DNA from: a virus
Direction: 5' to 3' (one strand)
IMG/VR virus record: IMGVR_UViG_3300020198_000887
Coordinates: 78,295 to 142,294 of that record
DNA: 64,000 nt
Under the pieces are notes generated by a model, which was given only the letters and a program-made list of their open reading frames with translations, did not search any database and was not told the DNA's origin. Of the stretch, positions 1,143 through 48,533 are shown piece by piece (positions within the stretch are counted from its first letter, which is position 1; every line of letters starts with the position of its first letter). The translations under genes and the position numbers were made by a program.

Positions 1143-4100
1143 TTATCCTCCGTTATGTATTACTTTAAGCAATGCAGTTTGTGCTGTTATTTCAAATGCT
1201 AGGCGTTGTGCCTGGCCACCAAACGTAAACTTAGCACGCAATGTCCTAATCACATGTCCATCTGGCATGGTAATGTTGCATTGTGTATTATTTTTTCTGA
1301 CTATAGTCTGATTAGTAAGTGGTCCATACTGAATATTACTAACACTAATTACTACTCCCGAACTATCACACATTTGAGAATACAATACTTCTAATTTATA
1401 ATACGGTATTTTATTATCACTAATTTCTGGTGCTTTGGATATAACAGTAATACCATTAACCACAGCATTTACTGGCAAGTCGATGTTTACTAGCTCATTA
1501 TCACGAACTTCCATTGATACGGTAACCATTGTGTTGGCAAATGTAATATTGCGTGGATTGGTACGGAATCCTGCAACTGTACCCGCAAGACCCATATATC
1601 CAGACATAAATGCATCGTTATCGTTATTTGCGTTACTTTCCGTATAGTGTGGAATCAGTGAAATCCCATTAATGAACGATTGTAGTTTGCCGGAATTGAT
1701 AGTGGCAGACGAAAAGGTCTTGGCCCCAGCAATCAACGTTTTAACTTCTGGCAACGCAGTTGGGGTGGTTGTATTACCAACCAATGCTGTTTGGGCTTTA
1801 AACTTTGCATTAATAGGATACACCGTAGACACTGGTATTGTGCAATTTTCATCAGTATACAACTTAACAGCAAACAGCTGGTCTTCTGTAGTATTATAAT
1901 CACCAACCGTTGGTATTTGGACGTTTGCAACATTTGACATTACGGGTGCGATTCCACGTGTTAATCCACCAAACCGTGGGAACGTTTGGTTATCATATAT
2001 CACTTTCCAATATACATCAGAATTAGTGGCAACTGCGGCATTGAATGATAATGTTTCACCGGCGGCGATTGCCAACGGCTTTTTCGAGCTGTCATTTATA
2101 ACAATGGTATCACTAGTACATAACAACGGACCGGTCACTGATTCAGTGTGTAATTCTACATACACGGTCTCCTGGCCTTCTGTTATTAAATCCACCGTAA
2201 CTAACGCAGTCCATACCATCGGACTACCAGTTACTACAAACGAACCATTATCATTAAATCCTTGTCCGGAAACCGCCAACCAATCCCCGGTGTCTGACCC
2301 TGTAGTGTATATAAATTTAGGATATACTAATGTTCCTTGTTTAAAATACTGGTTCGTAAAAGTAAATGTTACTAGATCACCCTCATTAACAACAAGTGGG
2401 GTGATCGTTAGCGTCCCACTTGGGTCAAACAATGACGTATCATTGATAGTAATTGTATTACTTGTTGCCACTGTTACCCCAGCAGTATCTTTAAACACCC
2501 ACGCGAACGTCTGACTCCCTTCTGTTGCATGATCTGCAACCACTGTATGCTTCCATGTAATAGTTGGCTGGGTAACCGTGAATGTGCCAGCTATGGCAGG
2601 AGCAGTTCCATCTGGGGATAAATCGTTATCCCCGGCTGTTCCACTATGAAAAGCAGTCAATACAGTACCAACTACAATATTTGCAACTTGAATTGTTGTT
2701 GTTATTAAGCTGCCCTCCGACGGCTTTGATGGTGAAATAGTTACTGCATAAGAAGGGGCCTTAGAGGTATCCTCTATGGTAAATGTCGAACTTCTTCGTA
2801 GTACAGGTCCACCAAGAACATCCATAACTTCAATGAATGCAGTTTCATATCCTTCTGTTTTGAGGTCTGGTGATACCTCAAATTGCCAAGTCATTGCACT
2901 TCCACTTGTTGAAAATGAGTAGATATTACCAGTTTTAGTGAGTGATGGACCTGATAATAAAGCATAATCAGTCCCATATGTCGCAGACCCACCAAATGAA
3001 AGATACATTGTTGAGTTTGATGCCACATTTGCAACATTTAATGTAACAGAAAATGTTTTATTTGTGGTTTCATTTATATTTCCCGATGCAGGTGAAATAG
3101 TCATCCCATATGATGGATTTTGCGAAGTGTCTAAAATTAAAATACCCTGACTTGTTTGAACTACCGGACCAGTTTTTGACCCAGTTCTAAGCTGCACCTC
3201 AAATGTTTCACCACCCTCGGTTTTATTATCAGTTAATGCAGTAATCGAAAAATTTCCTGCACCGGAACTATCAAGTATCAATTCTGCGCTTCTTTTATTC
3301 AAATCAAACTCATCCAACCCTGCCGCATCTGGAATAACCCAAAAAAGTACGGTATTTTTTGGAACATTCACTGTAGTAACAGTGAATTCAACCCCCGTTG
3401 TTCCTTCACCAATCATAGTAGCAGACTGCGCTAGGTTATAAACTTTCTGTGTTTGAGAATCATCTTTTATGATAACGCCGCTGCTTGTTTGTCTGATTGT
3501 ACCATCATACCCACCTGTTCTAACTTGCAATTCAAATGACATATCACCTTCAGTAATAACATCTGCGTTAGCAGTTAACGTTACCTTACCAACATTGTTT
3601 GTAACTGTAAATGTGCCACGAACTTTGCTTTCAACAAAATCATCCGCCGTTAATTTATCATTTGATAACGTCCAATATAAAAGTGCATTATTGGGTAAAT
3701 TTGTAGTATAAATTGTAAAAGTAACCCCTTTTCCACCCTCGTTTATTTGCGATTGACTAACATCAATCGTAATAGTTGGTTCTACAAATGTATCTGTTAT
3801 TGTTGTAACTTCACTCGTTTGAACAATCAGTCCAGCAAACCCACCAGTACGTAGTTGAATAGCAAATGATTCGGTATTTTCTGGAACACCATCTGCAGCG
3901 GCGGTTCTCACAATACTCGCTTTTCCAGTCGTATCGACATTAACAGTGCCGGATAATTTATTATCACTAAAATCAGTTGGTTGAATAACTCCAACTGGGG
4001 TTGTCGTCCAGTATAATGTTTCACTCGGTGAAACATTTGTTGTGGAAACTGTAAATGTTACAGTATTATTAGCTCCAGTTTCACCAATAGTTGATTTATC

Positions 4101-7783: not shown

Positions 7784-9313
7784 TTATAAAATTACAGCTT
7801 CAACAATTTTAACGTCGTCGGTTGTATTAGATTCTAATGCAATAGCAAAAACATTTTCCAGTAATCCTGCCACACAAGCTACACCGCCATTAGCGGCAAC
7901 TAATCGGTCGCCTTTTGAAACTTTGCCAGCAACTTTTACGGGAACACGACCTTTCAAGGCAATATATATTCCGCCTTCTAATTCACTATTCATCATGTAT
8001 GCTGGATTTTTGGACACAGTTCCCAATGCTCTTGCCCCAAGAACGCCAGCGGTCACTTCCCGGTCACCCCCCACCATAACTACAGTACCAACATCATAAT
8101 CTTCATCTGCTAAGTATTTTTCGGCCAAGTCAGCATAATATGCAGTGGTTGCTGTACCAACAAAATAATTTGCCAGAATGGAACCAGCAGTAACATTTAT
8201 CCCATTTATTGATTGGTCAGCACTTGTTCTGGCAACTATGGTACCTGATGAAACTGTTGAACTCGCAGTTTTATATGTCCCACCGACATTTAAAGAATCT
8301 GCTTGTGTTGCAGTACCTGAAAATACATTTGCAAACACCGTACTAAACTTAGATGTGATTGACCCGATATTTGATATAAGATTTTCACCGGCCAATATAT
8401 CAGACCCTTTCAACTTGAATGGTGTTTTTGTTATATTGTTAACCGTTGTACTAAAAATAATGGTGTCGCCATTTGTATTAACAATTGTTGGGATTGATTG
8501 ATTTTGTGGATCATTAAATACCTTCAATTTAGCAACTGGATTTCCAACTGTATAACCAACATCTGCAAAATTAACTACTGCAGTAAATGTAGCATGATTT
8601 GCTCGTATAAACTCAGCGGCATCATATCGTACATCAGAAATGTTTAATGAATCCGCTGATGCAGAAGTTCCAAATAATCGAAATTTTGCTACCCCTCCGG
8701 CAGCATCAGTTACACCATTTACATCAGTGTTTATAAGCGTAATACCAGAATGGACTGTCGTGAACCCAGAAATAGCAGTGGATGCATCTAAATCGAATGC
8801 CCCCCGTTTATTAATTATAAAAACAGTGGTTCCATCAACAACCGCTTCAATAATTGTATGATTTTCACCACCTGTTGCAGAAGTTGCTTTAACTGTTCTA
8901 GTTCTCATCTCGGTGATATTGTTCCCAGATGACTGTGGGCCAACTAACACGAATTGAGATCCATTCCACGCATTAAGTTGTTGATTTGATGTGTCCCACC
9001 AAAAATCACCCTCTGTTAATCCGGTTGGCTGTGTTGATCCAACTTCTGCACCACCGGTGGTTCTCCATTTCAAACTATCATAAAATTTTAACTTTTTAGT
9101 GCCACTATCAAACCAAATTTGCCCGCTTATTGCCCGCGATGGCGGGGTTACATTGGCAAAATTTTCTAATAAAAATACAATATTCTCGTTTTGAGCCTCA
9201 CCGTATCCAGCATAGTTTTTACCAATTAGTTTAATATCCAGTGTTGTATCAATTGTTCCATCAGCTACTACGGTTACTTGATTTCCATTATATTTGTTGA
9301 TGATATATGCCAT
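7784..9313 (-). CDS. Tail fibre/baseplate-attached protein, paralog 3, with C-terminal ADLAE (peptidase G2/chaperone-like) domain
   Basis: Shared N-terminus DGTID..L.LIGKNYAGYGE..NEN..LLENFAN..GQIWFD; C-terminal YADLAEKY...GTVV..GG...ALKGRVPVKV.G.V.KGDRLV. Confidence 0.65.
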   Translation of the reverse strand: MAYIINKYNGNQVTVVADGTIDTTLDIKLIGKNYAGYGEAQNENIVFLLENFANVTPPSRAISGQIWFDSGTKKLKFYDSLKWRTTGGAEVGSTQPTGLTEGDFWWDTSNQQLNAWNGSQFVLVGPQSSGNNITEMRTRTVKATSATGGENHTIIEAVVDGTTVFIINKRGAFDLDASTAISGFTTVHSGITLINTDVNGVTDAAGGVAKFRLFGTSASADSLNISDVRYDAAEFIRANHATFTAVVNFADVGYTVGNPVAKLKVFNDPQNQSIPTIVNTNGDTIIFSTTVNNITKTPFKLKGSDILAGENLISNIGSITSKFSTVFANVFSGTATQADSLNVGGTYKTASSTVSSGTIVARTSADQSINGINVTAGSILANYFVGTATTAYYADLAEKYLADEDYDVGTVVMVGGDREVTAGVLGARALGTVSKNPAYMMNSELEGGIYIALKGRVPVKVAGKVSKGDRLVAANGGVACVAGLLENVFAIALESNTTDDVKIVEAVIL

Positions 9314-9337
9314 CTGATTATTTCCTCATTCTTTGTA

Positions 9338-9345
9338 TATTTATG
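9338..9345 (-). promoter_or_regulatory. Putative late (gp55) promoter CATAAATA
   Basis: T4-like TAAATA box 25 nt upstream of the 9313 start, followed by SD GAGGA. Confidence 0.5.
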
Positions 9346-9355
9346 TGGTTATATA

Positions 9356-11008
9356 TTATATGTTAGTTTGCCAAACCCATACATTAGTAATTGATAATTC
9401 ATATTCCTTTATTACACCAGTATCAATGCATAATATTCTACAAATTGCACCAGATTGATGTTCTGTCGGTGGATATATTTTATTAATATACACACTAGCA
9501 ATCTGCTCATTACTTAAAATTCCGTTATTTATTGTTAATCCCAACGGAGCCACTTTAACTGCTGTTGTCAATGTCACTAAGTTAACAGCATCAGTTTCAT
9601 TAGTAGGTGATGCAACATTTATTAGTTTTTTATTACTAACATTAACCGACCCATTACCCTTTGGTAATAATATTATATCGCCATGTTGTATTATTGGGTT
9701 TACGTAACTTATTGTATCTGAATTAATATTCACATAATCTACTTGCAATGATGTCAATTGGCCAATACTAGTCAACCCGGGTGCACTAGTTACTGTAATT
9801 CCCAATGATGACAAACTTAATACATCTTGCGTTCCTATCTTGTATGATTTTCCACTTATCAACGCCATATTATCAGACGACGTCCATGCTGCAGTTTCAC
9901 CAACCCAATTAAATGTCTTGTCAGTGGTCCCCTTGACAGTAATACCACCACCATCTGCAGTTAAATCAGTTGGGTTATCAACTTTGCCTAATTCAATGTT
10001 TCTATCAACTATATCAATAACGGTAGATTTAACCGTAGTTAATTCACCCTTTACGGTCAAACTTCCCTGAATTATTGCGTCTCCAGTAACATCCAACGTA
10101 GCATTTGGGGTATTTGTGAATATACCAACCCGTTGATGCAATGCATTAATATGCACCCCGGGTAATAATTGATTATTATGCCGTATATTAAATTGAATAT
10201 CTTGGTCTGCCACATTTGAATTTAATTCAAACTTTAAATTACTAACTTTAATTTCGTTATTGCTAGCCGGGCCAAGTACTAATGGCGTTGAATTTATGAC
10301 AGATATTGTACCAACCGTATCAGTATCGGTGTTCGTTTTCATAAAATTTTCGGCATTATATGATGTTCCAATTGAATCTAATAGTGCTGCGGAGGTTTCA
10401 ACCGGTGCTTTGAATTTTATACCAGACAAACTTCCGGAATTAAATCCAATATCTATCAATGTTCCATTATAACCAGGAATGGTCTTGGCTAATGTAAATG
10501 CAGCACTACTAAAAATTCCCAATAATATTTTAGATACATATAATAATACTAATGTATGTTTTATTTGATGTACATCATATACTTCAGTTATAATAAATCC
10601 ACTTACACCCTGTTGTGCAGTATATGCTGGCCCAGCCAATGATAACCCAAATCCATCGTGAAAATACATTTGTCGGCGAGTGGTATCTATCCATAAATCA
10701 CCCTGTGTTAATGTGCTTGGGGCTGAACTTGCAACTACTGTTCCACTTGTTGCATTAAATCCAATACCATTGTATACTTTTAACCGTTCATCAGATGTAT
10801 CAAACCACAGCTGGCCTGCAATTGGCCTTGGTGGTGGTGTAGTATTTGCAAAATTTTCCAACAAATACACCATATTCTCATTAAACAGTTCACCATATGT
10901 ACTAGTATTTTTACCGATCAACGTTAAATCACTAGCAGTTTGGTCAATAGTTCCATCTAAGATATCAGTTAATTTTGACCCATCAGTTTTGTTTATTGTG
11001 TAACTCAT
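9356..11008 (-). CDS. Tail fibre/baseplate-attached protein, paralog 2
   Basis: Same N-terminal module (LLENFANTTPP..GQLWFD); RVGIFTNTPNATLDVTG beta-strand motif. Confidence 0.65.
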   Translation of the reverse strand: MSYTINKTDGSKLTDILDGTIDQTASDLTLIGKNTSTYGELFNENMVYLLENFANTTPPPRPIAGQLWFDTSDERLKVYNGIGFNATSGTVVASSAPSTLTQGDLWIDTTRRQMYFHDGFGLSLAGPAYTAQQGVSGFIITEVYDVHQIKHTLVLLYVSKILLGIFSSAAFTLAKTIPGYNGTLIDIGFNSGSLSGIKFKAPVETSAALLDSIGTSYNAENFMKTNTDTDTVGTISVINSTPLVLGPASNNEIKVSNLKFELNSNVADQDIQFNIRHNNQLLPGVHINALHQRVGIFTNTPNATLDVTGDAIIQGSLTVKGELTTVKSTVIDIVDRNIELGKVDNPTDLTADGGGITVKGTTDKTFNWVGETAAWTSSDNMALISGKSYKIGTQDVLSLSSLGITVTSAPGLTSIGQLTSLQVDYVNINSDTISYVNPIIQHGDIILLPKGNGSVNVSNKKLINVASPTNETDAVNLVTLTTAVKVAPLGLTINNGILSNEQIASVYINKIYPPTEHQSGAICRILCIDTGVIKEYELSITNVWVWQTNI

Positions 11009-38087: not shown

Positions 38088-39101
38088 GTGTCACAATTAT
38101 TTAAAAAAGCTGCGTGCTTTACCGACATTCATTATGGTGCAAAAAGTAATAGCGAAATTCACAACACCGACTGTTTAGATTTTACTAAATGGTTTATCAA
38201 AATGTCAAAGCAGCATGGATGTGACACTTGTATAATTTTAGGTGACTACCATAACAATAGGTCAACGATGAATATACGAACAATGGATTATATCCTTAAA
38301 AGTTTTGAACTTTTGAGTAACTGTTTTGAAACAGTATACCTAATTCAAGGAAACCACGACTTATTTTTCAAAGACAACCGTATTGTGTCCAGTATAAACT
38401 GGGCAGCACATATAAAAAATATAACAATTATAGATAATATAACATCAATCGGTAATGTTACATTATGCCCCTGGTTAGTTGGTGATGAATGGAAGTCATT
38501 AAAGAAAATATCTGGAAAATATATATTTGGACACTTTGAACTACCAGCATTCTTTATGAATTCATTAGTACAAATGCCAGACCACGGAGAAATTAGTCTA
38601 GAACATTTCCAAAATTATGAACTTGGTTTCAGTGGGCATTTTCATAAACGCCAATCTCGTGGAAATATGCATTACATTGGCAACGCATTTCCACATAATT
38701 ATGCAGATACCTGGGATGATGAACGCGGAATGATGATATTAGAATGGGGTGGAATACCAGAATATTATACATGGCCTGACCAACCAACATATAGAAATGT
38801 CACTTTAAGCCAGTTAATCGACAACTCTGATTCAATATTAAAACCAAAACAGCACTTACGAGTCACATTAGATATTGATATTAGTTTTGAAGAAGCCAGT
38901 TTTATTAAAGAAAACTATATCACAGAATATAATCTCAGGGAAATGACATTGATTGCCGAACGGAAAGTATCTGAAATCAACACTGACATCGATGTACAAG
39001 CATTTGAAAGTATCGATACAATTGTCGCCAATCAACTTATTAACATCGAATCTGATACATTCAACAAGTATTCTCTATTAGAAATTTATAACGAACTATG
39101 A
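38088..39101 (+). CDS. gp47: Recombination endonuclease subunit, Mre11/SbcD-like
   Basis: Metallophosphoesterase motifs FTDIHYG, LGDYHNNR, GNHD, FGHFE, SGHFH; GTG start with SD GGAG. Confidence 0.92.
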   Translation: MSQLFKKAACFTDIHYGAKSNSEIHNTDCLDFTKWFIKMSKQHGCDTCIILGDYHNNRSTMNIRTMDYILKSFELLSNCFETVYLIQGNHDLFFKDNRIVSSINWAAHIKNITIIDNITSIGNVTLCPWLVGDEWKSLKKISGKYIFGHFELPAFFMNSLVQMPDHGEISLEHFQNYELGFSGHFHKRQSRGNMHYIGNAFPHNYADTWDDERGMMILEWGGIPEYYTWPDQPTYRNVTLSQLIDNSDSILKPKQHLRVTLDIDISFEEASFIKENYITEYNLREMTLIAERKVSEINTDIDVQAFESIDTIVANQLINIESDTFNKYSLLEIYNEL

Positions 39102-40864
39102 TAATAATAAAAGAACTCACTGTAAAAAACTTCATGAGTGTTGGTAATGCTGCACAAGCAGTGACCTTTACATCAGAAAATATAACACTCGTCTTAGGTG
39201 AAAATTTAGACCAGGGCGGGGATGATGCAGGTTCAAGAAATGGTACTGGCAAAACAACCATTGTAAATGCATTAAGTTTTGCATTATACGGAGTTGCATT
39301 AACAAATATCAAAAAAGACAACCTTATCAATAAAATCAACAATAAAAATATGTTGGTGTCATTAACATTTGAAAAAGATGGGGTTGACTACAAAATAGAA
39401 CGCGGTAGAAAACCTGCTATTTTTAACTTCATTAATGTCAGTAACCCAATGGCATCCAGTGTTAGTCAAGGCGAATCAAGAGATACTCAAGAAGATATCA
39501 ACCATTTACTAGGAATGAGCCATGATATGTTTAAACATATATTGGCACTTAATACCTATTCTGATCCTTTTCTGTCAATGAGATCTAGTGACCAACGAGT
39601 TATAATTGAACAACTTTTAGGCATTACATTACTGAGTGAAAAATCCGAAGCGTTGAGCAAAGAAATTAAAAAAACAAAAGATTTGATTTTTCAAGAAAAT
39701 GCAAATTTAGAAGCAACAAAAAAAGCAAACGAAAAAATTCAGAATAGCATCGATACCCTGGTACTAAGTCAACGCGCGTGGAATTCTAAGCACAATACTG
39801 ACCTAGAGAAAATAGTAAAATCAATCGTTGATTTAGAAAGTCTTGACATCAATCGTGAACTCGAATTACACAGTGAATGGAAAATATATTCCGAATTTCG
39901 AACCAAATATAATAGTTTATCAAACGAAAAAAATACACTAGCAAATGCAGTTTCACAAGGGGCAAAAAACCTGGATAAATATTCATCTGAATTAGATATA
40001 TTATTCAGTAATAAATGCCCTATATGTAACCAAGAGTTGCACGATCATAAACACGATGAATTATCACAGATTGTCAACGCTAATATAACCGAATCACAAA
40101 AATATTACAATAAAGTAATAACAGATTATGAATTAATCATTAAAGATTTAGATGAGTTAGGTATGATGTCTGAACCAACTAGTACCTTTTATAACACCAT
40201 CGAAGAAGCGTTAACCCACCAAAATAACTTGCTGTCATTAACTACCCAACTCAATACAAAAGTAGTTGAATCTAATCCGTATGATGAACAAATTATCGAA
40301 TTAAAAAGTGAAGCATTACAAGACCTAGACTGGGACCATATAAATGAGCTTAATAAATTAAAAGATCACCAAGAATTTTTACAGAAATTATTAACGAACA
40401 AGGATAGTTTTATTCGTAAAAAAATTATTGACCAAAATCTTGCATATCTAAATAATAGATTGACATATTACCTTGACAAAATGGGCTTACCACACACCGT
40501 TATATTCCAGAATGATTTATCGGTTGAAATAACCCAACTTGGTCAGGAACTAGACTTCCACAATCTCAGTCGTGGTGAAATGACTAGGGTAACACTTGGA
40601 TTAAATTTTGCATTTCGGGATGTTTTTGAAAGTATATATTCAACTATTAATCTATTATTCATAGATGAACTAATTGACAATGGTTTAGATGCAAGTGGTG
40701 TTGAAAATAGTATTAGTATTATGAAACACATCAGCAGGGAACGAAATAAAAATATCTTTTTGATTAGTCATAAAGATGAACTATCAAACAGGGTCAACAC
40801 CATTTTAAAAGTAATCAAAGAAAATGGATTTACTGCATATCAATATCCAGAATATAATGATTGA
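39098..40864 (+). CDS. gp46: Recombination ATPase subunit, Rad50/SbcC-like
   Basis: KNFMSVGN, Walker A RNGTGKTT, zinc-hook CPIC, signature LSRGE, Walker B LLFIDE.ID.GLD, ISHK. Confidence 0.93.
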   Translation: MIIIKELTVKNFMSVGNAAQAVTFTSENITLVLGENLDQGGDDAGSRNGTGKTTIVNALSFALYGVALTNIKKDNLINKINNKNMLVSLTFEKDGVDYKIERGRKPAIFNFINVSNPMASSVSQGESRDTQEDINHLLGMSHDMFKHILALNTYSDPFLSMRSSDQRVIIEQLLGITLLSEKSEALSKEIKKTKDLIFQENANLEATKKANEKIQNSIDTLVLSQRAWNSKHNTDLEKIVKSIVDLESLDINRELELHSEWKIYSEFRTKYNSLSNEKNTLANAVSQGAKNLDKYSSELDILFSNKCPICNQELHDHKHDELSQIVNANITESQKYYNKVITDYELIIKDLDELGMMSEPTSTFYNTIEEALTHQNNLLSLTTQLNTKVVESNPYDEQIIELKSEALQDLDWDHINELNKLKDHQEFLQKLLTNKDSFIRKKIIDQNLAYLNNRLTYYLDKMGLPHTVIFQNDLSVEITQLGQELDFHNLSRGEMTRVTLGLNFAFRDVFESIYSTINLLFIDELIDNGLDASGVENSISIMKHISRERNKNIFLISHKDELSNRVNTILKVIKENGFTAYQYPEYND

Positions 40865-41305: not shown

Positions 41306-42010
41306 ATGGATTACGGGCATTGGTTATTCAACGTTGATTTTAATCCAGAAGATTGGTTTGGGTTTATTTATATAATCACTGAACTTGACACTGGGCGAAA
41401 ATATATAGGAAAGAAACAATTTTTTAACACAAATAGAAAAGTTGTTAAGGGAAAGAAAAATAAAAAAAAGGTAATTTCCGAATCAAATTGGAGGATTTAT
41501 ACTGGGTCTTCCAAAAATTTAAATTTTGAGATCTCTATTAAAGGTAACTCTAACTATATATTTGAAATATTATCATTACATAACTCCAAAGGCTCATTAC
41601 ATTATGCAGAAGTTGAATATCAAATTACACATAATGTTTTGCGTGAATTATTAGATGATGGTATAACCAAAAAATACTTCAATAGAGCTGTTTCAGGGGT
41701 TAAATTTATACCCCCCGCAGAAACTATGGATGAATCTAGAATATCAATTAGTAAAATTTTAGCAGGTGATGATTACACACAAGGTAAAATGACAATTGCT
41801 GATTACGATAACTGGTTTGAAAACCATCATACCACTATTTCTGAAGAAGTGTATGGTTTTGAAAAAACTGAAAAATTAAAAAAATTATTAAAAAATTACT
41901 CAATGGCAAACACACCTGTTAGCAAAGGCACCCGCAGCAAACCATCCACCCCAACCGAAAAATCAAAACCCCCAACCACAAAAAAAGTTAATAAAAAGGT
42001 TGCAAAATAA
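41306..42010 (+). CDS. GIY-YIG family endonuclease with basic low-complexity C-terminal tail
   Basis: GFIYIITELDTGRKYIGKK, ESNWRIYTGSS, conserved E (YAEVEYQ) and N (YFN). Confidence 0.85.
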   Translation: MDYGHWLFNVDFNPEDWFGFIYIITELDTGRKYIGKKQFFNTNRKVVKGKKNKKKVISESNWRIYTGSSKNLNFEISIKGNSNYIFEILSLHNSKGSLHYAEVEYQITHNVLRELLDDGITKKYFNRAVSGVKFIPPAETMDESRISISKILAGDDYTQGKMTIADYDNWFENHHTTISEEVYGFEKTEKLKKLLKNYSMANTPVSKGTRSKPSTPTEKSKPPTTKKVNKKVAK

Positions 42011-42028
42011 TGCGACTTACAGTATAAT
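42000..42028 (+). promoter_or_regulatory. sigma70-type promoter TTGCAA-17-TATAAT firing into a non-coding region
   Basis: TTGCAA aataatgcgacttacag TATAAT, overlapping the GIY-YIG stop codon. Confidence 0.75.
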
Positions 42029-42034
42029 AATCAC

Positions 42035-42560
42035 ATTAATACATAATTATCTAAACAAAACTAATTTTTAGGCAAAGATAGGCATTACACTTCTGAAATA
42101 CTCGCACCGGTAGATTGATAGGTGCCGTTGGCAATGGAATGTTCTTCGCATTGGGCGCAACAGCTGGGCAGAAGCAGCGACTTTACTGACTACCCACACC
42201 GCGTGTTGTGGATGCTGATTGGATACGCCTTCTGTAAAACCAATTTCGGTAATTTGAATATCATGAAAAGGCTAAAAGACTGGGTAATTCCCAGACGTAA
42301 TAGGAATACGACTAGAGTGTTTTCCTATTGCCACCGTTGGAACGTAAGAAACAAAAAGCGCACTTCGAGGTAACGGCCAACCGCCTCTGTAATCAGTGTC
42401 ACTCTAGGTAATGAAGTCAACTCAGATGAAATTATGTTTTTGCTCCCAATTTGGGGGCAAAAATCCAGTAAATCGTAATCTAGATGAACAGTTAAGATAA
42501 TAATTATTTTTAATATGTGACGAACGACAGTGAGGAACAGGGGAATTTATTCCCCTTTGT
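42035..42560 (+). ncRNA. Candidate large structured non-coding RNA, family not recognised
   Basis: Own promoter, GC-richer than its flanks, no credible ORF, more than 10 helices, 3 possible pseudoknots, terminal hairpin. Confidence 0.6.
42539..42560 (+). terminator. Hairpin closing the non-coding region
   Basis: AGGGGAA-TTTA-TTCCCCT followed by TTGT (short U-tract). Confidence 0.5.
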
Positions 42561-42599
42561 CAAGATCAACATACATGAAAGGAATAGTATAAAAATAGT

Positions 42600-42607
42600 T
42601 ATAAATA
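42600..42607 (+). promoter_or_regulatory. Late promoter TATAAATA
   Basis: Exact consensus 21 nt upstream of ATG 42629. Confidence 0.65.
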
Positions 42608-42628
42608 TTAGATACGGAAAATGATATT

Positions 42629-43396
42629 ATGAAAATTCATGAAATAATTTATAAAACTACATTAACTGAAGCACTAGGTAACCTAGCCAAAACTGCTACT
42701 GCAGCAGCAGCTAAAAAAGCAGCAGCAGTAGCAGCTGAAAAAGCAGCCAAACCTACTGCAGCAGCAGCTGTGTTATTTAGTATGTTAAAAGCAATTGGTA
42801 TATCTGCAGTTCCTATCTCTGATTATTATAATGAGATGGAAAAGGCGGAAAAAGCATTAGAAGCAAATGAGATTACTAAATCGCAATATGATAGCTATAG
42901 AATGGAACAACTGACCATTTTAATCGAACAATTGGCAATAGGATTAAGTGGTTATTTTGTTAAAAATATTACTTATGGTAAATTACTGCCGGTTTTCAAA
43001 AACTGGATGCCAAACCTAGCTAGATCAATGCAAACCATAAACACAATTGGTGAAGTTGCATTTGTATCTTGGTTGGCATCTGATAGAGGTAGAAAATTCA
43101 TTGCTACCTACTTAACAAATGAATATATTGTGCAATTGGTTGGTGGCGGATCTGCAAGACTATTGGATTATTTCGAAAGTTTGATTCCTGGGTTTAACAC
43201 TGAACATGCATTAAGCCCATACAACAAACCTACTAAAACCACACAACAAAATACCCTATCATATGTTCCAGCAGCTGCTGCTGCGTTGGGAACAAAAACT
43301 CCAACCGACCAATCTACTGGAAGTGATGAGTATATTGATCAAAATATGAAACGAGACCCTAAAGATTATTGGAATGTAAAACCAACATTACAATAA
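42629..43396 (+). CDS. Hypothetical late protein, possible internal head/ejection protein
   Basis: Late promoter; N-terminus MKIHEIIYKTTLTE-A; Ala/Lys-rich segment and hydrophobic helices. Confidence 0.6.
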   Translation: MKIHEIIYKTTLTEALGNLAKTATAAAAKKAAAVAAEKAAKPTAAAAVLFSMLKAIGISAVPISDYYNEMEKAEKALEANEITKSQYDSYRMEQLTILIEQLAIGLSGYFVKNITYGKLLPVFKNWMPNLARSMQTINTIGEVAFVSWLASDRGRKFIATYLTNEYIVQLVGGGSARLLDYFESLIPGFNTEHALSPYNKPTKTTQQNTLSYVPAAAAALGTKTPTDQSTGSDEYIDQNMKRDPKDYWNVKPTLQ

Positions 43397-43608: not shown

Positions 43609-44433
43609 TTAGGCTTTTGCGAAAAAACTTGATTGATCTAGATCTATCATAATTTCACCTTCGGCATCGCATTCCCCACATTTTACTTTATATGGTGGAA
43701 TTTGTAATGCTTCCCGATTTTTATTGAATTTTTCTTTAATAATATCAAACACTTCTTTATCGCAATTGTTGATCCATTCTAGAATGAATGAACGATCTGT
43801 TACAACAACATCAGATGTTTGGACTGATTCAATACTTGCGTAAATCAATTCATTCTGAAGAATCCCTAACTGTTTGAATAATGATGCAATAAGTTTCTGC
43901 TGTTCATCTTTGTTATCATTATTATAGTGTGACAATTGTTGCTGTAATTCAAAATTTCTTAATGAAAACTCTGTACTTTGACGATATGTTAATGGTTGTA
44001 ATTTTATAGTTAAATCATTTATGACTATTTTGTTGTCATAAATGAATGATGAAAAATGGTCTATCAAGGTTGACAATTCTATATCATAATCATTTTCTTC
44101 ACCACAACTACGGCATTTTTGTGTAACTGTGAGTTTATTACCAAACGTAGCAATTCTGATTGCTGATAAAATTAAATCAGTATCTAGACTTGTTATTTCC
44201 CATGCATCTTTGATATTTGGACAACAACTTTCTATAACTTTTACAATACTTTCGCCGGACAATAATGCATCTGGTGTTTTCATTAACAATTCATCCATTC
44301 CTGTCATGCCAAATACTGGCATATTAGACACATCTCCAGTCAACGACCCAATCTTATTATAAACACCATTTGATGGCAGTTTAACAAAGATTTTTGGCTG
44401 TCTAAAATATTTTTGTAATGGATTTTGGCTCAT
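43609..44433 (-). CDS. gp26: Baseplate hub assembly chaperone, gp26-like
   Basis: NPL.KYFRQP...V.LPS.G, MTG.DEL..KTPDALL.G, D.D.IL.AIRIATFG, two CxxC pairs, C-terminal SFF; SD AGGAG. Confidence 0.75.
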   Translation of the reverse strand: MSQNPLQKYFRQPKIFVKLPSNGVYNKIGSLTGDVSNMPVFGMTGMDELLMKTPDALLSGESIVKVIESCCPNIKDAWEITSLDTDLILSAIRIATFGNKLTVTQKCRSCGEENDYDIELSTLIDHFSSFIYDNKIVINDLTIKLQPLTYRQSTEFSLRNFELQQQLSHYNNDNKDEQQKLIASLFKQLGILQNELIYASIESVQTSDVVVTDRSFILEWINNCDKEVFDIIKEKFNKNREALQIPPYKVKCGECDAEGEIMIDLDQSSFFAKA

Positions 44434-44444
44434 ATATAACTCCT

Positions 44445-44466
44445 GATAAATATAACAGTATTTATA
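44445..44466. promoter_or_regulatory. Face-to-face late promoters: GATAAATA (+, 44445-44452) and TATAAATA (-, 44459-44466)
   Basis: Both boxes lie in the 59-bp gap between the divergent gp26-like and tape-measure-like genes. Confidence 0.55.
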
Positions 44467-44492
44467 TACTAAAATTTCCTCGGGATTTATTT

Positions 44493-47400
44493 ATGGCAGA
44501 CCTTGACGACAGAGACAAAGAAGCATTATTACGCAGAGTTAACGAATTAGTAACGGCCAATCGAACCAACAGTAAACCAGCGGCCAATACTGGTGGACTT
44601 GGTGAATTAGAATCGGGTAACATGATTAAAACAGTTTTTGGTGTAGCCCAAGACGGGTTAGGTAAGTTGGCAGATGGCTCGATGGGCGCTGCTGACGCAT
44701 TGCATCTCACAACAGGTCTTATATCGCAATTTGGAACAGTTGCTGGGTTAGCTGGTAGTGCATTAGATAAACTTGGAACCGGAACTATAGCAGTAAATCA
44801 AGCATTGAATGAAACTGGGAAGTATGGGGTAAACCTTGGGAATGATTTAGGTCTATTCAATTCATCGGTAAAACAAGCTGGACTAACTATGCCAGAATTT
44901 ACCAGATTAGTTGAACGCAACGCTACACATCTCGCTGGGTTGGGTAGCAACATGAATAAATCAGCCCTGGCATTTCTCGAAATAGCCGAAGGCGTTAGAA
45001 CATCAGATGTAGGCAAACAATTACAAGAAGCAGGGATGAGCGCTGAGGAACTAGCAAGCGCAACTAGATCTAGTATGATTAGTCAACGTGCAATTGCACG
45101 TGATGATGCAGCATCCAAAAGAGAAAGCATAGAATCTGCACTCAGATTCGCACAAGAACTAAACAAAACTGCGGATATATCAGGAAAAAGTAGAAAAGAA
45201 GCCGAAGAATTAGTAACACAACAACAAAAACGTTCCGAAGTGGAATCTGCTATGTTCTTAGGTGGAAAGGACTATGCCGCCGCCACAACACTCGCACAAA
45301 CATCAATGTCAAAATGGGGTAAATCCCTAATGGAAGCATATGGTGATGTTGTTACTGGTGGTCCAAAAGATGCTAGAGGCAGTAATTTACAAACCGCACT
45401 GGGCAGTGAGGTTGTTGCAGCAATGCGACGACTTGATGCAGCCAATAAAACCAATAACAAAGAAGCGCAGGAAGCAGCTAGAAAACAACTCGATGCTGCA
45501 ATGATTGCTCGAACAAATTCTGTAGAATTTCATGAAACAAACCGCCAACTTGCTGGGAAATATGGCGAATATAGTCAAATGTTATCATCTTTGCAATCAG
45601 ATACCAACAGAACAGCAGCTGCCTATCAAGCAGGAATGGCTGAACTTGCGCAAGAAAAACCCGGTACAGAAATAACTCCAGAAATGGCTGTTGACACCGC
45701 TGCGTTTAAACAACAAATGGACCAAGCTGGTAAAAAAGTTAACGAGTCTGGTGAAATAGTCGACAACTCACCCGCAAAACTGGGCAGAACCATTAACGAC
45801 ATTGACATGGCATTAAAAAATGGGACAGCTATGCTAGTCGGGAGTTTCCAGGATCTTAATAATAAAATTGGGAATACTGACGGAATAAATTCTTTTCAAT
45901 CAAAAATGCGTGATTTATCATCACCTGAAGGTGTAATAACCGAATTTAATAAAAAATTATCAGACGCTTCAAAAGTAGTAGGTGTAGCAGTCGATGAATT
46001 TAGAAAGAAGTATGATATTCCGGAATATAACCCTACACCACCCCCACCAACTACGAAAGAAAGCAAAGGAGAGCGAGCATCTGGGACGTTAGGTGAGACT
46101 GGGCATCCAGTTGAACTTAAAGATTCGATATTGAAAATTCACAAAGGTGAAACAGTTGTTACACCAGAACAGATGAAAAATCTCATGAGTAATATTTCAA
46201 ATTCTGGTGCACAGCACGCAATGCGTGAATCACACGAACTATTGAAAACAATTACTTCTAATATCACACCAGGTGGTGGAAGCAATATTACTAAGATGTC
46301 AGATGAGGCACTTGCTGCGAATTCACGTATAGTCGCATCGGAAAATGAATTGCAACAAAAAATGGCGCAAACGGTCGCTGCATTAGGAAAAGAACATCCT
46401 GAAAAATCATTGATGGAATTGGTTAAAATGAAAAATGCCGATCCAGAAATAAATCAGACAAAGGAGGATTTCAACAAACTTAACGCGGAAATTCAGGCAA
46501 GGGTTTCTTCATTATCAAAGACCATACGTGATACTGGCATAAATGAAATAACAGCCACTATTTCAGAAATGGTTAAATCTAACAATAACGTGTCCAACAT
46601 GGCACATGAACAGTACCATGTGGAACGGTTGGGCGTTCAGAAAGCTTTCAATGATAAAGAACGAGAACAATTAAAAACACACATTCAACAAGTATTATCA
46701 TCACTGAAAGAGATTGTACCATCGGATTTCGGCACTAACAACGCCCTGGATGAACTTTCAAAACTGTCATCCACTTTACAAAATACTACGAATATTGGTA
46801 ATTTTACGACCGAAATATCAAAATTAACCGGGATAAATCCGGCTGAGATTAACGCCGACGATTTTAAAAATGAAATCACACAATTAAAAAATAATATTGG
46901 TGATGGTGGCAAAGATGTTAATAATGTTATTTCTGAACATTTCAAATTTTACAAAAATAGTAATATCAATTTTCACAAAGATTTAGACGCCGACAATGCC
47001 GACTGGGACCGGCAACGACTAGCAGATACACGACAATGGAAATTGGAAGAAGGTAAATCAGCCGAGCAGTTAAATGCTGAGATTTTAGCAAATAAAAAGC
47101 AAGAAAATGCGAAACTATTTGAAGAAGCAGAACGCGCAAGAACTGTAATCGGAACATCCGTTGCCGGGATTGGTGAAGATGCAATCGCAGCAATGCTGCC
47201 AGCAGGTGACACTCTCGAACGATATTACGTTGACTTAGATGGAAAACTTCAAAATTACGCAGCAGACAATGCTAAAAAAATTGAAGAATCATCTAATGCA
47301 TATAGCGAAATAAAATTACCGGACGTTACTGCGTTTTCAGAAACAACCAAATTATTGAATGATACATCCAACATAATTTCATCTAACGCCGCTGATTCAC

Positions 47401-48533
47401 TATCGAATGCCAAAGAAGAAGAAGAATCATCTCTTATGTTGTTAAGGGATGTTGGCGAATCCAAGGACTGGGTATTCTACAAGGTGATTGATACAGTTTC
47501 TGGGCTCGTCAAAGAAATAACTACCGATGAGAAATCAGCACGTGACTACATCAAAAAAAATACACATCAAAATGAGGAAGTTAGGATGTCAACCCTGTTA
47601 TCTTCACTTGCCCCACCAGGTGGTTTCAGTCATCATAGAGCGGTATCCAATGAAGTTGGTGATCTTTATGACCCCTCTAAGATTAGAGAAAAAACCCAAT
47701 CTACCAACAGCCAACCCGCTGAAACTAAACAAAAAGAAACTAGTATTTTTGAAGACATCGGGAACTTTTTTAGTTCACAAAATAAACCTGCTGAAACTAA
47801 ACAAAAAGAAACTAATATTTTTGAAGACATCGGGGACTTTTTTAGTTCACAAAATAAACCTGCATATAGTTCAGGTAATGTTAAATATGGGGTAGTCCCA
47901 CCCGAGGTGTCCGCTGAATTTAACCGAAATAAAGATAAATTAGCAGAAGAAATTAGCACTGAACAAGAGATACAGGCATATCGTAAAAAAGTTCATGAAA
48001 GTGGGATGTATAGTGAAGAAAGCAAAAAATCACTTCCAAAACCAGATTATACAAAATTAAATGAACTTCTCGCTAAGAAACATGGTGGGTCGATTTCAGA
48101 AGACAGTAAACTAGTAATCCCACAAACAGCAATTAATAAACCAACAAAAGTTGGATCAGTACCTGATGCAGGAAAAATTGCAACCGAGCAGCTTAATAAA
48201 AATCTTGGGACATCAACATCTGAATGGTTGAGAAATTTAAAAACTAATTTTGGTAAGAAACACGTAACAGCTACTGAAAAACCACCATTATCCTCTAACA
48301 TTGACAAAGTAAAACAAGCACCATCCAAACCGGACCTACATAAACCTGATGATAAAAAAGATGATATATCAATAAAACCAGTTGCTCATGAAATATCATT
48401 AAAAGACATCAATGACCAACTAATAATGTTAAATATCAGTATAAAACATCTGATATCGCATTCTGAATCCATTAGCGATGCAGCGAGCAAAACAGCAAAA
48501 CAGACCAGAACTATCAGTGGTTCTAGGGTTTAA
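44493..48533 (+). CDS. Tape-measure-like protein (long helical, Ala/Gln/Glu-rich)
   Basis: Start revised to MADLDD (upstream frame overlaps gp26 and the promoters); predominantly helical composition; adjacent to the chaperone gene. Confidence 0.6.
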   Translation: MADLDDRDKEALLRRVNELVTANRTNSKPAANTGGLGELESGNMIKTVFGVAQDGLGKLADGSMGAADALHLTTGLISQFGTVAGLAGSALDKLGTGTIAVNQALNETGKYGVNLGNDLGLFNSSVKQAGLTMPEFTRLVERNATHLAGLGSNMNKSALAFLEIAEGVRTSDVGKQLQEAGMSAEELASATRSSMISQRAIARDDAASKRESIESALRFAQELNKTADISGKSRKEAEELVTQQQKRSEVESAMFLGGKDYAAATTLAQTSMSKWGKSLMEAYGDVVTGGPKDARGSNLQTALGSEVVAAMRRLDAANKTNNKEAQEAARKQLDAAMIARTNSVEFHETNRQLAGKYGEYSQMLSSLQSDTNRTAAAYQAGMAELAQEKPGTEITPEMAVDTAAFKQQMDQAGKKVNESGEIVDNSPAKLGRTINDIDMALKNGTAMLVGSFQDLNNKIGNTDGINSFQSKMRDLSSPEGVITEFNKKLSDASKVVGVAVDEFRKKYDIPEYNPTPPPPTTKESKGERASGTLGETGHPVELKDSILKIHKGETVVTPEQMKNLMSNISNSGAQHAMRESHELLKTITSNITPGGGSNITKMSDEALAANSRIVASENELQQKMAQTVAALGKEHPEKSLMELVKMKNADPEINQTKEDFNKLNAEIQARVSSLSKTIRDTGINEITATISEMVKSNNNVSNMAHEQYHVERLGVQKAFNDKEREQLKTHIQQVLSSLKEIVPSDFGTNNALDELSKLSSTLQNTTNIGNFTTEISKLTGINPAEINADDFKNEITQLKNNIGDGGKDVNNVISEHFKFYKNSNINFHKDLDADNADWDRQRLADTRQWKLEEGKSAEQLNAEILANKKQENAKLFEEAERARTVIGTSVAGIGEDAIAAMLPAGDTLERYYVDLDGKLQNYAADNAKKIEESSNAYSEIKLPDVTAFSETTKLLNDTSNIISSNAADSLSNAKEEEESSLMLLRDVGESKDWVFYKVIDTVSGLVKEITTDEKSARDYIKKNTHQNEEVRMSTLLSSLAPPGGFSHHRAVSNEVGDLYDPSKIREKTQSTNSQPAETKQKETSIFEDIGNFFSSQNKPAETKQKETNIFEDIGDFFSSQNKPAYSSGNVKYGVVPPEVSAEFNRNKDKLAEEISTEQEIQAYRKKVHESGMYSEESKKSLPKPDYTKLNELLAKKHGGSISEDSKLVIPQTAINKPTKVGSVPDAGKIATEQLNKNLGTSTSEWLRNLKTNFGKKHVTATEKPPLSSNIDKVKQAPSKPDLHKPDDKKDDISIKPVAHEISLKDINDQLIMLNISIKHLISHSESISDAASKTAKQTRTISGSRV
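47718..47863 (+). repeat. 72-bp in-frame tandem duplication (AETKQKET(S/N)IFEDIG(N/D)FFSSQNKP x2)
   Basis: Two copies starting at 47718 and 47790 with two substitutions. Confidence 0.95.

Follow-up and report, generated by a model that had tools for sequence, protein, structure and literature searches.

The 618-base gap at 42011-42628 of the window, the 64-kb stretch of viral DNA analyzed here, holds what we consider, with a probability of roughly 0.8, to be a real, stand-alone gene for a non-coding RNA of about 520 nt that is doubly pseudoknotted and contains a full-length Polynucleobacter-1 RNA. Two parts of this reading, the Polynucleobacter-1 identity and the non-coding nature of the RNA, are firmer still and very likely correct.

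The Polynucleobacter-1 motif originates from Weinberg et al. (2010, Genome Biol 11:R31, PMC2864571), and our literature search found it named in that paper only. The entry for the motif in the 2010 supplement (PMC2864571) places it in environmental sequence and one Polynucleobacter genome, downstream of the GOS11034 gene family, for which a possible homology to a cyanophage gene is given. That entry records no motif copy in any purified phage and states that the 3' half is not always detected, and the motif was rated possibly cis-regulatory. The raw alignment published with the paper (PMC2864571) additionally holds a 'tail' sub-family with three additional hairpins and a tentative 7-bp pseudoknot.

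Genomic setting

The window forms the right-hand end, 64 kb long, of an IMG/VR virus record of 142 kb, whose CheckV completeness of 37% gives a genome estimate near 385 kb. The carrier is an uncultured freshwater T4-like phage, and the T4-like genes near the gap include gp47- and gp46-type nuclease subunits at 38088-40864. The gap separates the open reading frames 41306-42010 and 42629-43396, both on the same strand as the RNA. GC content is 0.40-0.475 within the gap versus about 0.30 in the flanks, so that the intergenic gap richer in GC than its surroundings, from which the preliminary description of this DNA set out, is borne out by both the frame boundaries and the composition. An 83-codon frame at 42122-42373 has no Pfam match and is not preserved in relatives, and the RNA is therefore read as non-coding. 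The 255-aa protein of 42629-43396, which has an alanine-rich start, belongs to no Pfam or PHROG family and has no similarity to DUF6641. A search for loci related to it returned none, and only weak relatives of it stand in the same place in three contigs. Further along, a 1371-aa protein at 44418-48533 is without a Pfam family. The features of the locus are as follows.

41306..42010, plus strand: SegE-type GIY-YIG homing endonuclease gene, a neighbor outside the RNA (PF19835, E = 5.5e-33)
42000..42028, plus strand: sigma-70-type promoter-like site, -35 at 42000-05, 17-nt spacer, -10 at 42023-28 (10 of 12 positions)
42035..42098, plus strand: 5' leader in which AGGCA stands at 42070-74 and again at 42080-84, followed by a conserved part right before the Rfam match; conservation starts here
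42099..42255, plus strand: 5' domain, the full-length RF01718 match, with hairpins 42104-25, 42132-53 and 42163-78 (helices 94-100% paired)
Within 42099..42255, plus strand: closing stem 42183-88/42247-52 around hairpins 42194-211 and 42218-44 (5 of 6 pairs covary)
42256..42418, plus strand: middle domain outside the Rfam model, with hairpins 42280-94, 42298-330, 42360-64/42395-99 and 42367-87 (groups A and B)
Within 42256..42418, plus strand: middle-domain pseudoknots 42312-19/42400-07 and 42336-40/42377-81
42424..42430, plus strand: twin box copy 1, AGATGAA, identical to copy 2; single-stranded and adjoining the 5' side of the 12-bp hairpin
42437..42463, plus strand: 12-bp hairpin between the boxes (12 of 12 pairs)
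42482..42488, plus strand: twin box copy 2, AGATGAA, which co-varies with copy 1
42489..42559, plus strand: 3' tail with an AT-rich hairpin, a small hairpin at 42517-38, the candidate terminator stem 42540-45/42550-55 and a TTTG tail (the hairpins recur in relatives)
43609-44433, minus strand: T4 baseplate protein gene

Identification as a Polynucleobacter-1 RNA

When the window was compared with Rfam 15 using cmscan, positions 42099-42255 of the plus strand matched the Polynucleobacter-1 RNA, RF01718, over model positions 1-141 of 141, with 58 bits against a cut-off of 37 and an E-value of 9e-10 for the 64-kb window. This is the single above-threshold Rfam match across the whole window, and since it is also full length, the RNA belongs to a known family and not to a new class. 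The preliminary description had called the RNA unrecognized and perhaps a member of an undescribed class, and had said beforehand that a strong cmscan match to Rfam would remove the novelty; the RF01718 match does so, and that part of the description fails. Its large pseudoknotted RNA with a promoter and terminator of its own is supported by the results below. It had also seen no hallmarks of group I or group II introns, tRNA, tmRNA or RNase P. The Rfam models of group I and II introns, RNase P RNA, tmRNA, GOLLD, ROOL, HEARO and OLE had no match at E-values up to 10 in 41900-42700, nor had they in the relatives scanned, and ARAGORN found no tRNA or tmRNA in the window. The RF01718 model covers 157 of the approximately 520 nt, which leaves about two thirds of the transcript outside every Rfam model; the remaining 300 nt or so gave no other Rfam match at E-values up to 10.

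The 5' domain of the window RNA has the same hairpins and closing stem as Polynucleobacter-1. The gene upstream is of the same family in both cases, GOS11034 there and SegE-type GIY-YIG here, if we are right to infer that GOS11034 is the SegE_GIY-YIG family. The taxonomy reported for the motif also fits the freshwater origin of the window. By a by-eye match to the alignment text, the 'tail' hairpins and tentative pseudoknot of 2010 appear to correspond to 42280-42407 of the window. On the other hand, the 2010 supplement entry names no purified-phage copy whereas the carrier here is a T4-like phage contig, and the window lies in a divergent subgroup (58-70 bits versus 81-101) in which the RNA has a promoter to itself and repeats in its leader, and in which the genes on either side vary. 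Neither the twin boxes nor the second pseudoknot figures in the passages on the motif in the 2010 paper and supplement (PMC2864571).

Relatives and distribution

A degenerate 28-nt pattern taken from the conserved core found 74 viral contigs, 28 of them with an above-threshold RF01718 match. The whole unit from promoter to terminator (about 42035-42559) is conserved in these 28 IMG/VR contigs and in Polynucleobacter chromosomes, with conservation extending from the leader to the terminal hairpin and thus beyond the Rfam part. Most of the 28 contigs are fragments of T4-like phages with genomes of about 350-385 kb, as implied by their sizes and completeness. Group A consists of the window and 11 others that are 60-78% identical to it and score 59-70 bits, while group B scores 81-101 bits and group C 40 bits. 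The RNAs of the window, group B and group C had no blastn match among 50,697 phage records. Two related contigs (G008 and G013, of 56 and 29 kb) align with the genome of the window (G000) at the DNA level only across the RNA, over 588 and 500 nt (blastn); either much tighter constraint acts on the RNA than on the proteins, or the RNA passes from phage to phage.

Sixteen bacterial contigs, mostly Polynucleobacter, were found with a stricter pattern, and all are true RF01718 matches. Within a sample of 151 Polynucleobacter species genomes the RNA is present in 17-18, some of which carry two copies, and this sporadic presence marks it as accessory DNA rather than a housekeeping gene. Cultured carriers include the QLW-P1DMWA-1 type strain of the 2010 paper. 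Polynucleobacter sp. MWH-HuK1 (G071) has copies at C1:401229-401366 and 419563-419698, 18 kb apart on the same strand. They have differing box words, and each adjoins a DUF6641 gene and a recombinase of 188-189 aa.

Promoter, leader and 3' end

The promoter placed by the preliminary description at 42000-42028 agrees with the sigma-70 consensus at 10 of 12 positions, and no other promoter-like site within 2.5 kb scores as well. A site of at least 10/12 stands at the same relative place in seven of nine group-A relatives, and in four the consensus is perfect. Transcription would accordingly be predicted to start near 42035. The leader holds two AGGCA words in the window and one to four in relatives, at a spacing of about 11 nt. 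These tandem words (42065-42085 in the window, and in relatives L087-L093 and L101) occur in group A only, between the promoter and the Rfam match, and could be protein-binding sites on RNA or DNA.

At the other end, the small hairpin at 42517-42538 contains two tandem G-A mismatch pairs and may be a protein-binding motif; in two relatives G-C pairs stand in place of the outer G-A pairs. The terminal hairpin of the preliminary description is present at 42540-55 and is followed by TTTG; it is probably a terminator, although a weak one with a short U tract.

Structure of the RNA

The fold was evaluated on alignment A1, which comprises eight group-A sequences 60-78% identical to the window. All of the helices listed in the preliminary description pair as written in the window sequence, and its 17 helices are paired in 88.5% of the cells of A1. 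In a revised structure the pairings that failed make way for two others, the closing stem of the Rfam model (42183-88/42247-52) and 42336-40/42377-81. Its cells are 97.6% paired, and 29 of its 74 pairs have changes on both sides within group A. None of 500 shuffles matched the revised structure (0/500), and slid controls were 32-48% paired.

Nine of the local hairpins proposed earlier are supported by compensatory changes in A1. Among them are 42104-08/42121-25, 42132-36/42149-53, 42163-66/42175-78 and 42194-98/42207-11, as well as 42218-22/42240-44, 42280-84/42290-94 and 42298-306/42322-30, the last with such changes in seven of nine pairs. The pseudoknot 42312-19/42400-07 stands as originally written, with five of six pairs covarying in A1, and the 12-bp hairpin at 42437-63 has all 12 pairs in the window. 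A further pseudoknot is real, although its register had to be shifted by two bases, to 42336-40/42377-81, where it is 100% paired with two covarying pairs. Other proposals fared less well. The hairpin 42127-30/42158-61 is paired in 62% of cells only, and the kissing loop 42168-74/42229-35 shows four invariant pairs only and no group-B counterpart by eye. The inner three pairs of the long-range closure 42179-85/42412-18 conflict with the covarying closing stem 42183-88/42247-52, and the second long-range pairing, 42191-94/42407-10, has weak support. Folding energy on the plus strand, for which the preliminary description had suggested a comparison with shuffled sequence, is not better than that of the shuffles (z = -1.03, versus -2.43 on the minus strand), and taken alone it says little in either direction. 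The plus strand is taken as the RNA strand on the evidence of several conserved G-U pairs, which would read as A-C mismatches on the opposite strand.

The same layout is found in 12 group-B sequences. A covariance model for which only the group-B sequences of the middle domain were used matched every bacterial copy just 3' of its RF01718 match, with E-values of 6e-9 to 8e-5. The copy of group C was matched too, as was a single relative from group A; across all these copies 16 of 21 pairs show double changes. In the window, the best match of the model in 25 kb is 42272-42389, at 12.4 bits and an E-value of 0.15. Because the layout of group B is shared while the model reaches only this E-value, the subgroup of the window is understood to have the same architecture with a divergent sequence.

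Twin boxes

The two AGATGAA words flanking the 12-bp hairpin belong to a pattern that runs through the phage RNAs. All 20 distinct phage RNAs consist, in this region, of a box, 43-52 nt that include a hairpin of 8-13 bp with varying sequence, and the same box again. The two boxes are identical within each of the 20 RNAs, yet eight different words occur among them, and in three relatives the third letter has changed from A to T in both copies together. The bacterial RNAs contain two to four box copies about 58 nt apart. The copy in L092 has an insertion in the RNA, and no twin boxes were seen in it.

A word that varies between lineages while its copies stay identical suggests base pairing. No column of the RNA covaries with the boxes in the complementary sense, no box complement was found in the flanks of the RNA or in the bacterial loci (within 4-8 kb in bacteria), and a comparison of three related contigs, of little reach because two of them align only at the RNA, revealed no syntenic complementary site. 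The genome-wide count of the box word says little, as it is a common coding word. A search for inverted binding arms and inverted box copies found none. Pairing of the leader with the boxes was traced by eye in four sequences and fails in others. Start codons, Shine-Dalgarno mimics, C/D boxes and complements of anticodon loops were considered as explanations of the boxes and set aside, since each fits some of the words only.

Neighboring genes

In groups B and C the RNA is preceded, at a distance of about 17 nt, by the end of a gene for a GIY-YIG protein of 141-144 aa that consists solely of the catalytic domain. Homologues of this small family are present in 502 cultured phage records. The region downstream of GIY-YIG orthologues had been named in the preliminary description as the place to look for the RNA, and three of these records were checked: all three lack an RF01718 match, and the non-coding DNA that follows the gene measures just 28-148 nt. 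In many records of T4-like cyanophages and rhizobiophages the small GIY-YIG gene is labelled 'NAD synthetase' (NC_028945.1, NC_041997.1, NC_020875.1), which looks like a propagated mis-annotation.

Upstream genes in the subgroup of the window encode GIY-YIG nucleases in two lineages, PD-(D/E)XK, RusA-like or TnpB nucleases, or products of unknown type, and mobile nucleases seem to settle beside the RNA. The downstream genes of group A are unrelated to one another, and the next gene after the RNA in group B is convergent. Two relatives have particular neighbors. L092, a contig of 31.8 kb rated 96% complete that by its look is a small, nearly complete phage, has a 393-aa TnpB / IS605 OrfB protein directly 5' of the RNA (locus 1913-3094, minus strand), and in L088 the gene after the RNA (1958-2548) resembles the T7 gp0.7-type protein kinase (PHROG 15752, E = 2e-12). 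Kinases of the T7 gp0.7 type shut off host transcription.

The Polynucleobacter copies are located between a divergent DUF6641 gene and a downstream gene, on the same strand, for a 188-aa tyrosine recombinase without an N-terminal domain. DUF6641, on which our literature search found nothing, was not found in the genome of the window or in five large related contigs, and the phage contigs searched yielded no recombinase gene. At L132 of P. rarus an inserted gene (7958-10399, minus strand) separates the RNA from the small recombinase; it encodes an 813-aa protein whose only family assignment is PHROG 12629, and the arrangement fits a variable cargo slot. A nuclease gene that occurs without the RNA, the varied genes upstream and the differing bacterial neighbors together indicate that the RNA is an independent module.

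Possible function of the RNA

We tentatively propose that the RNA is a trans-acting early scaffold or decoy whose boxes pair with a partner in trans, a mechanism to which we give clearly less than even odds. The RNA is probably transcribed from its own early sigma-70-type promoter to the weak terminator and probably acts in trans. In the proposed mechanism the knotted core would form a stable scaffold or a platform for protein binding, and the twin boxes would pair with a nucleic acid that varies along with them and is present in two copies or offers two sites. The upstream nuclease genes would on the simplest account be homing endonucleases that settled beside unusually conserved sequence.

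Large non-coding RNAs such as GOLLD and ROOL are known from phages and prophages through the 2010 study and later work. They too are several hundred nucleotides long, contain multiple pseudoknots and reside on phages and mobile DNA, and to our knowledge have no established biochemical function. They differ in having no sequence or model similarity to the window RNA and in their position near tRNA genes, of which the window has none. The sponge RNAs CsrB and RsmZ carry a repeated single-stranded motif, the word of which is fixed since a protein reads it. The window RNA likewise repeats a short single-stranded word between hairpins, in two copies here and up to four in the bacterial versions, but here the word changes between lineages while the copies remain identical, and the resemblance is one of possible working mode only and not of membership.

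Other explanations were weighed against the trans-acting scaffold. A new RNA class, possibly a ribozyme, as the preliminary description had it, is very unlikely: the size and pseudoknots are within the range of large ribozymes and some two thirds of the transcript extends beyond the Rfam models, but the RF01718 match is full length and above threshold, the tail was already part of the 2010 alignment, none of the models for introns, RNase P, tmRNA or self-cleavers gives a match at E-values up to 10, and no host gene is interrupted. It is also improbable that the RNA is a cis-acting leader of 42629-43396 or the 3' UTR of the nuclease gene. That both neighbors share its strand, that the terminator is weak, that the RNA of groups B and C begins about 17 nt past the nuclease stop codon and that the 2010 supplement entry rates the motif possibly cis-regulatory (PMC2864571) would suit such a role, which the convergent next gene in group B, the unrelated downstream genes and own promoter of group A and the different bacterial neighbors argue against.

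Guides or crossover sequences would vary in step just as the boxes do, and the RNA might be the partner or guide of an adjacent DNA enzyme, the GIY-YIG protein in phages and the tyrosine recombinase in bacteria, with the boxes as guide segments. The nuclease of groups B and C is a bare catalytic domain of 141-144 aa directly 5' of the RNA, and the 188-aa recombinase without N-terminal domain lies downstream of it in bacteria. We regard this as highly improbable. Members of the GIY-YIG family are widespread, the RNA is missing from the three cultured phages checked, and close relatives of the window have other genes upstream. The phage contigs searched yielded neither a recombinase nor a DUF6641 gene, and neither 4-8 kb of the bacterial loci nor the aligned phage DNA contains a box complement. 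As for an RNA-guided system in general, the RNA and the enzymes are found apart and no complementary target was found. Very little credence can be given to a bolder version in which the twin boxes are programmable pairing segments by which the RNA, as a bivalent guide or bridge, keeps hold of two copies of a nucleic-acid target, in giant phages and Polynucleobacter islands alike, possibly with a minimal DNA enzyme such as a miniature tyrosine recombinase. The IS110 bridge RNA, which is structured, has its gene next to that of a recombinase on mobile DNA and carries short programmable segments, is an analogy only for that version; here there is no IS110 enzyme and no matching target or donor sequences were found, and we know of no RNA dependence of tyrosine recombinases. 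The slightest chance of all falls to a function exercised mainly by the DNA itself, for instance as an origin or as recombination sites whose crossover cores would be the boxes. Identical short direct repeats with freely varying sequence are typical of crossover regions, and the bacterial copies are linked to a tyrosine recombinase, but dozens of compensatory changes are strand-specific and G-U pairs are present, no inverted arms or inverted box copies were found, and the boxes are only about 50 nt apart.

Conclusions

The discovery is modest in that the family is already in Rfam. A catalogued orphan RNA nonetheless gains a definite setting, as a doubly knotted molecule of approximately 0.5 kb on giant freshwater T4-like phages that is more conserved at the DNA level than the surrounding protein genes and is also found in accessory DNA of the likely host genus, Polynucleobacter. 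The twin boxes, variable between RNAs and identical within one RNA, offer a concrete hypothesis that is testable by mutation, and cultured Polynucleobacter strains that carry the RNA make such experiments feasible.
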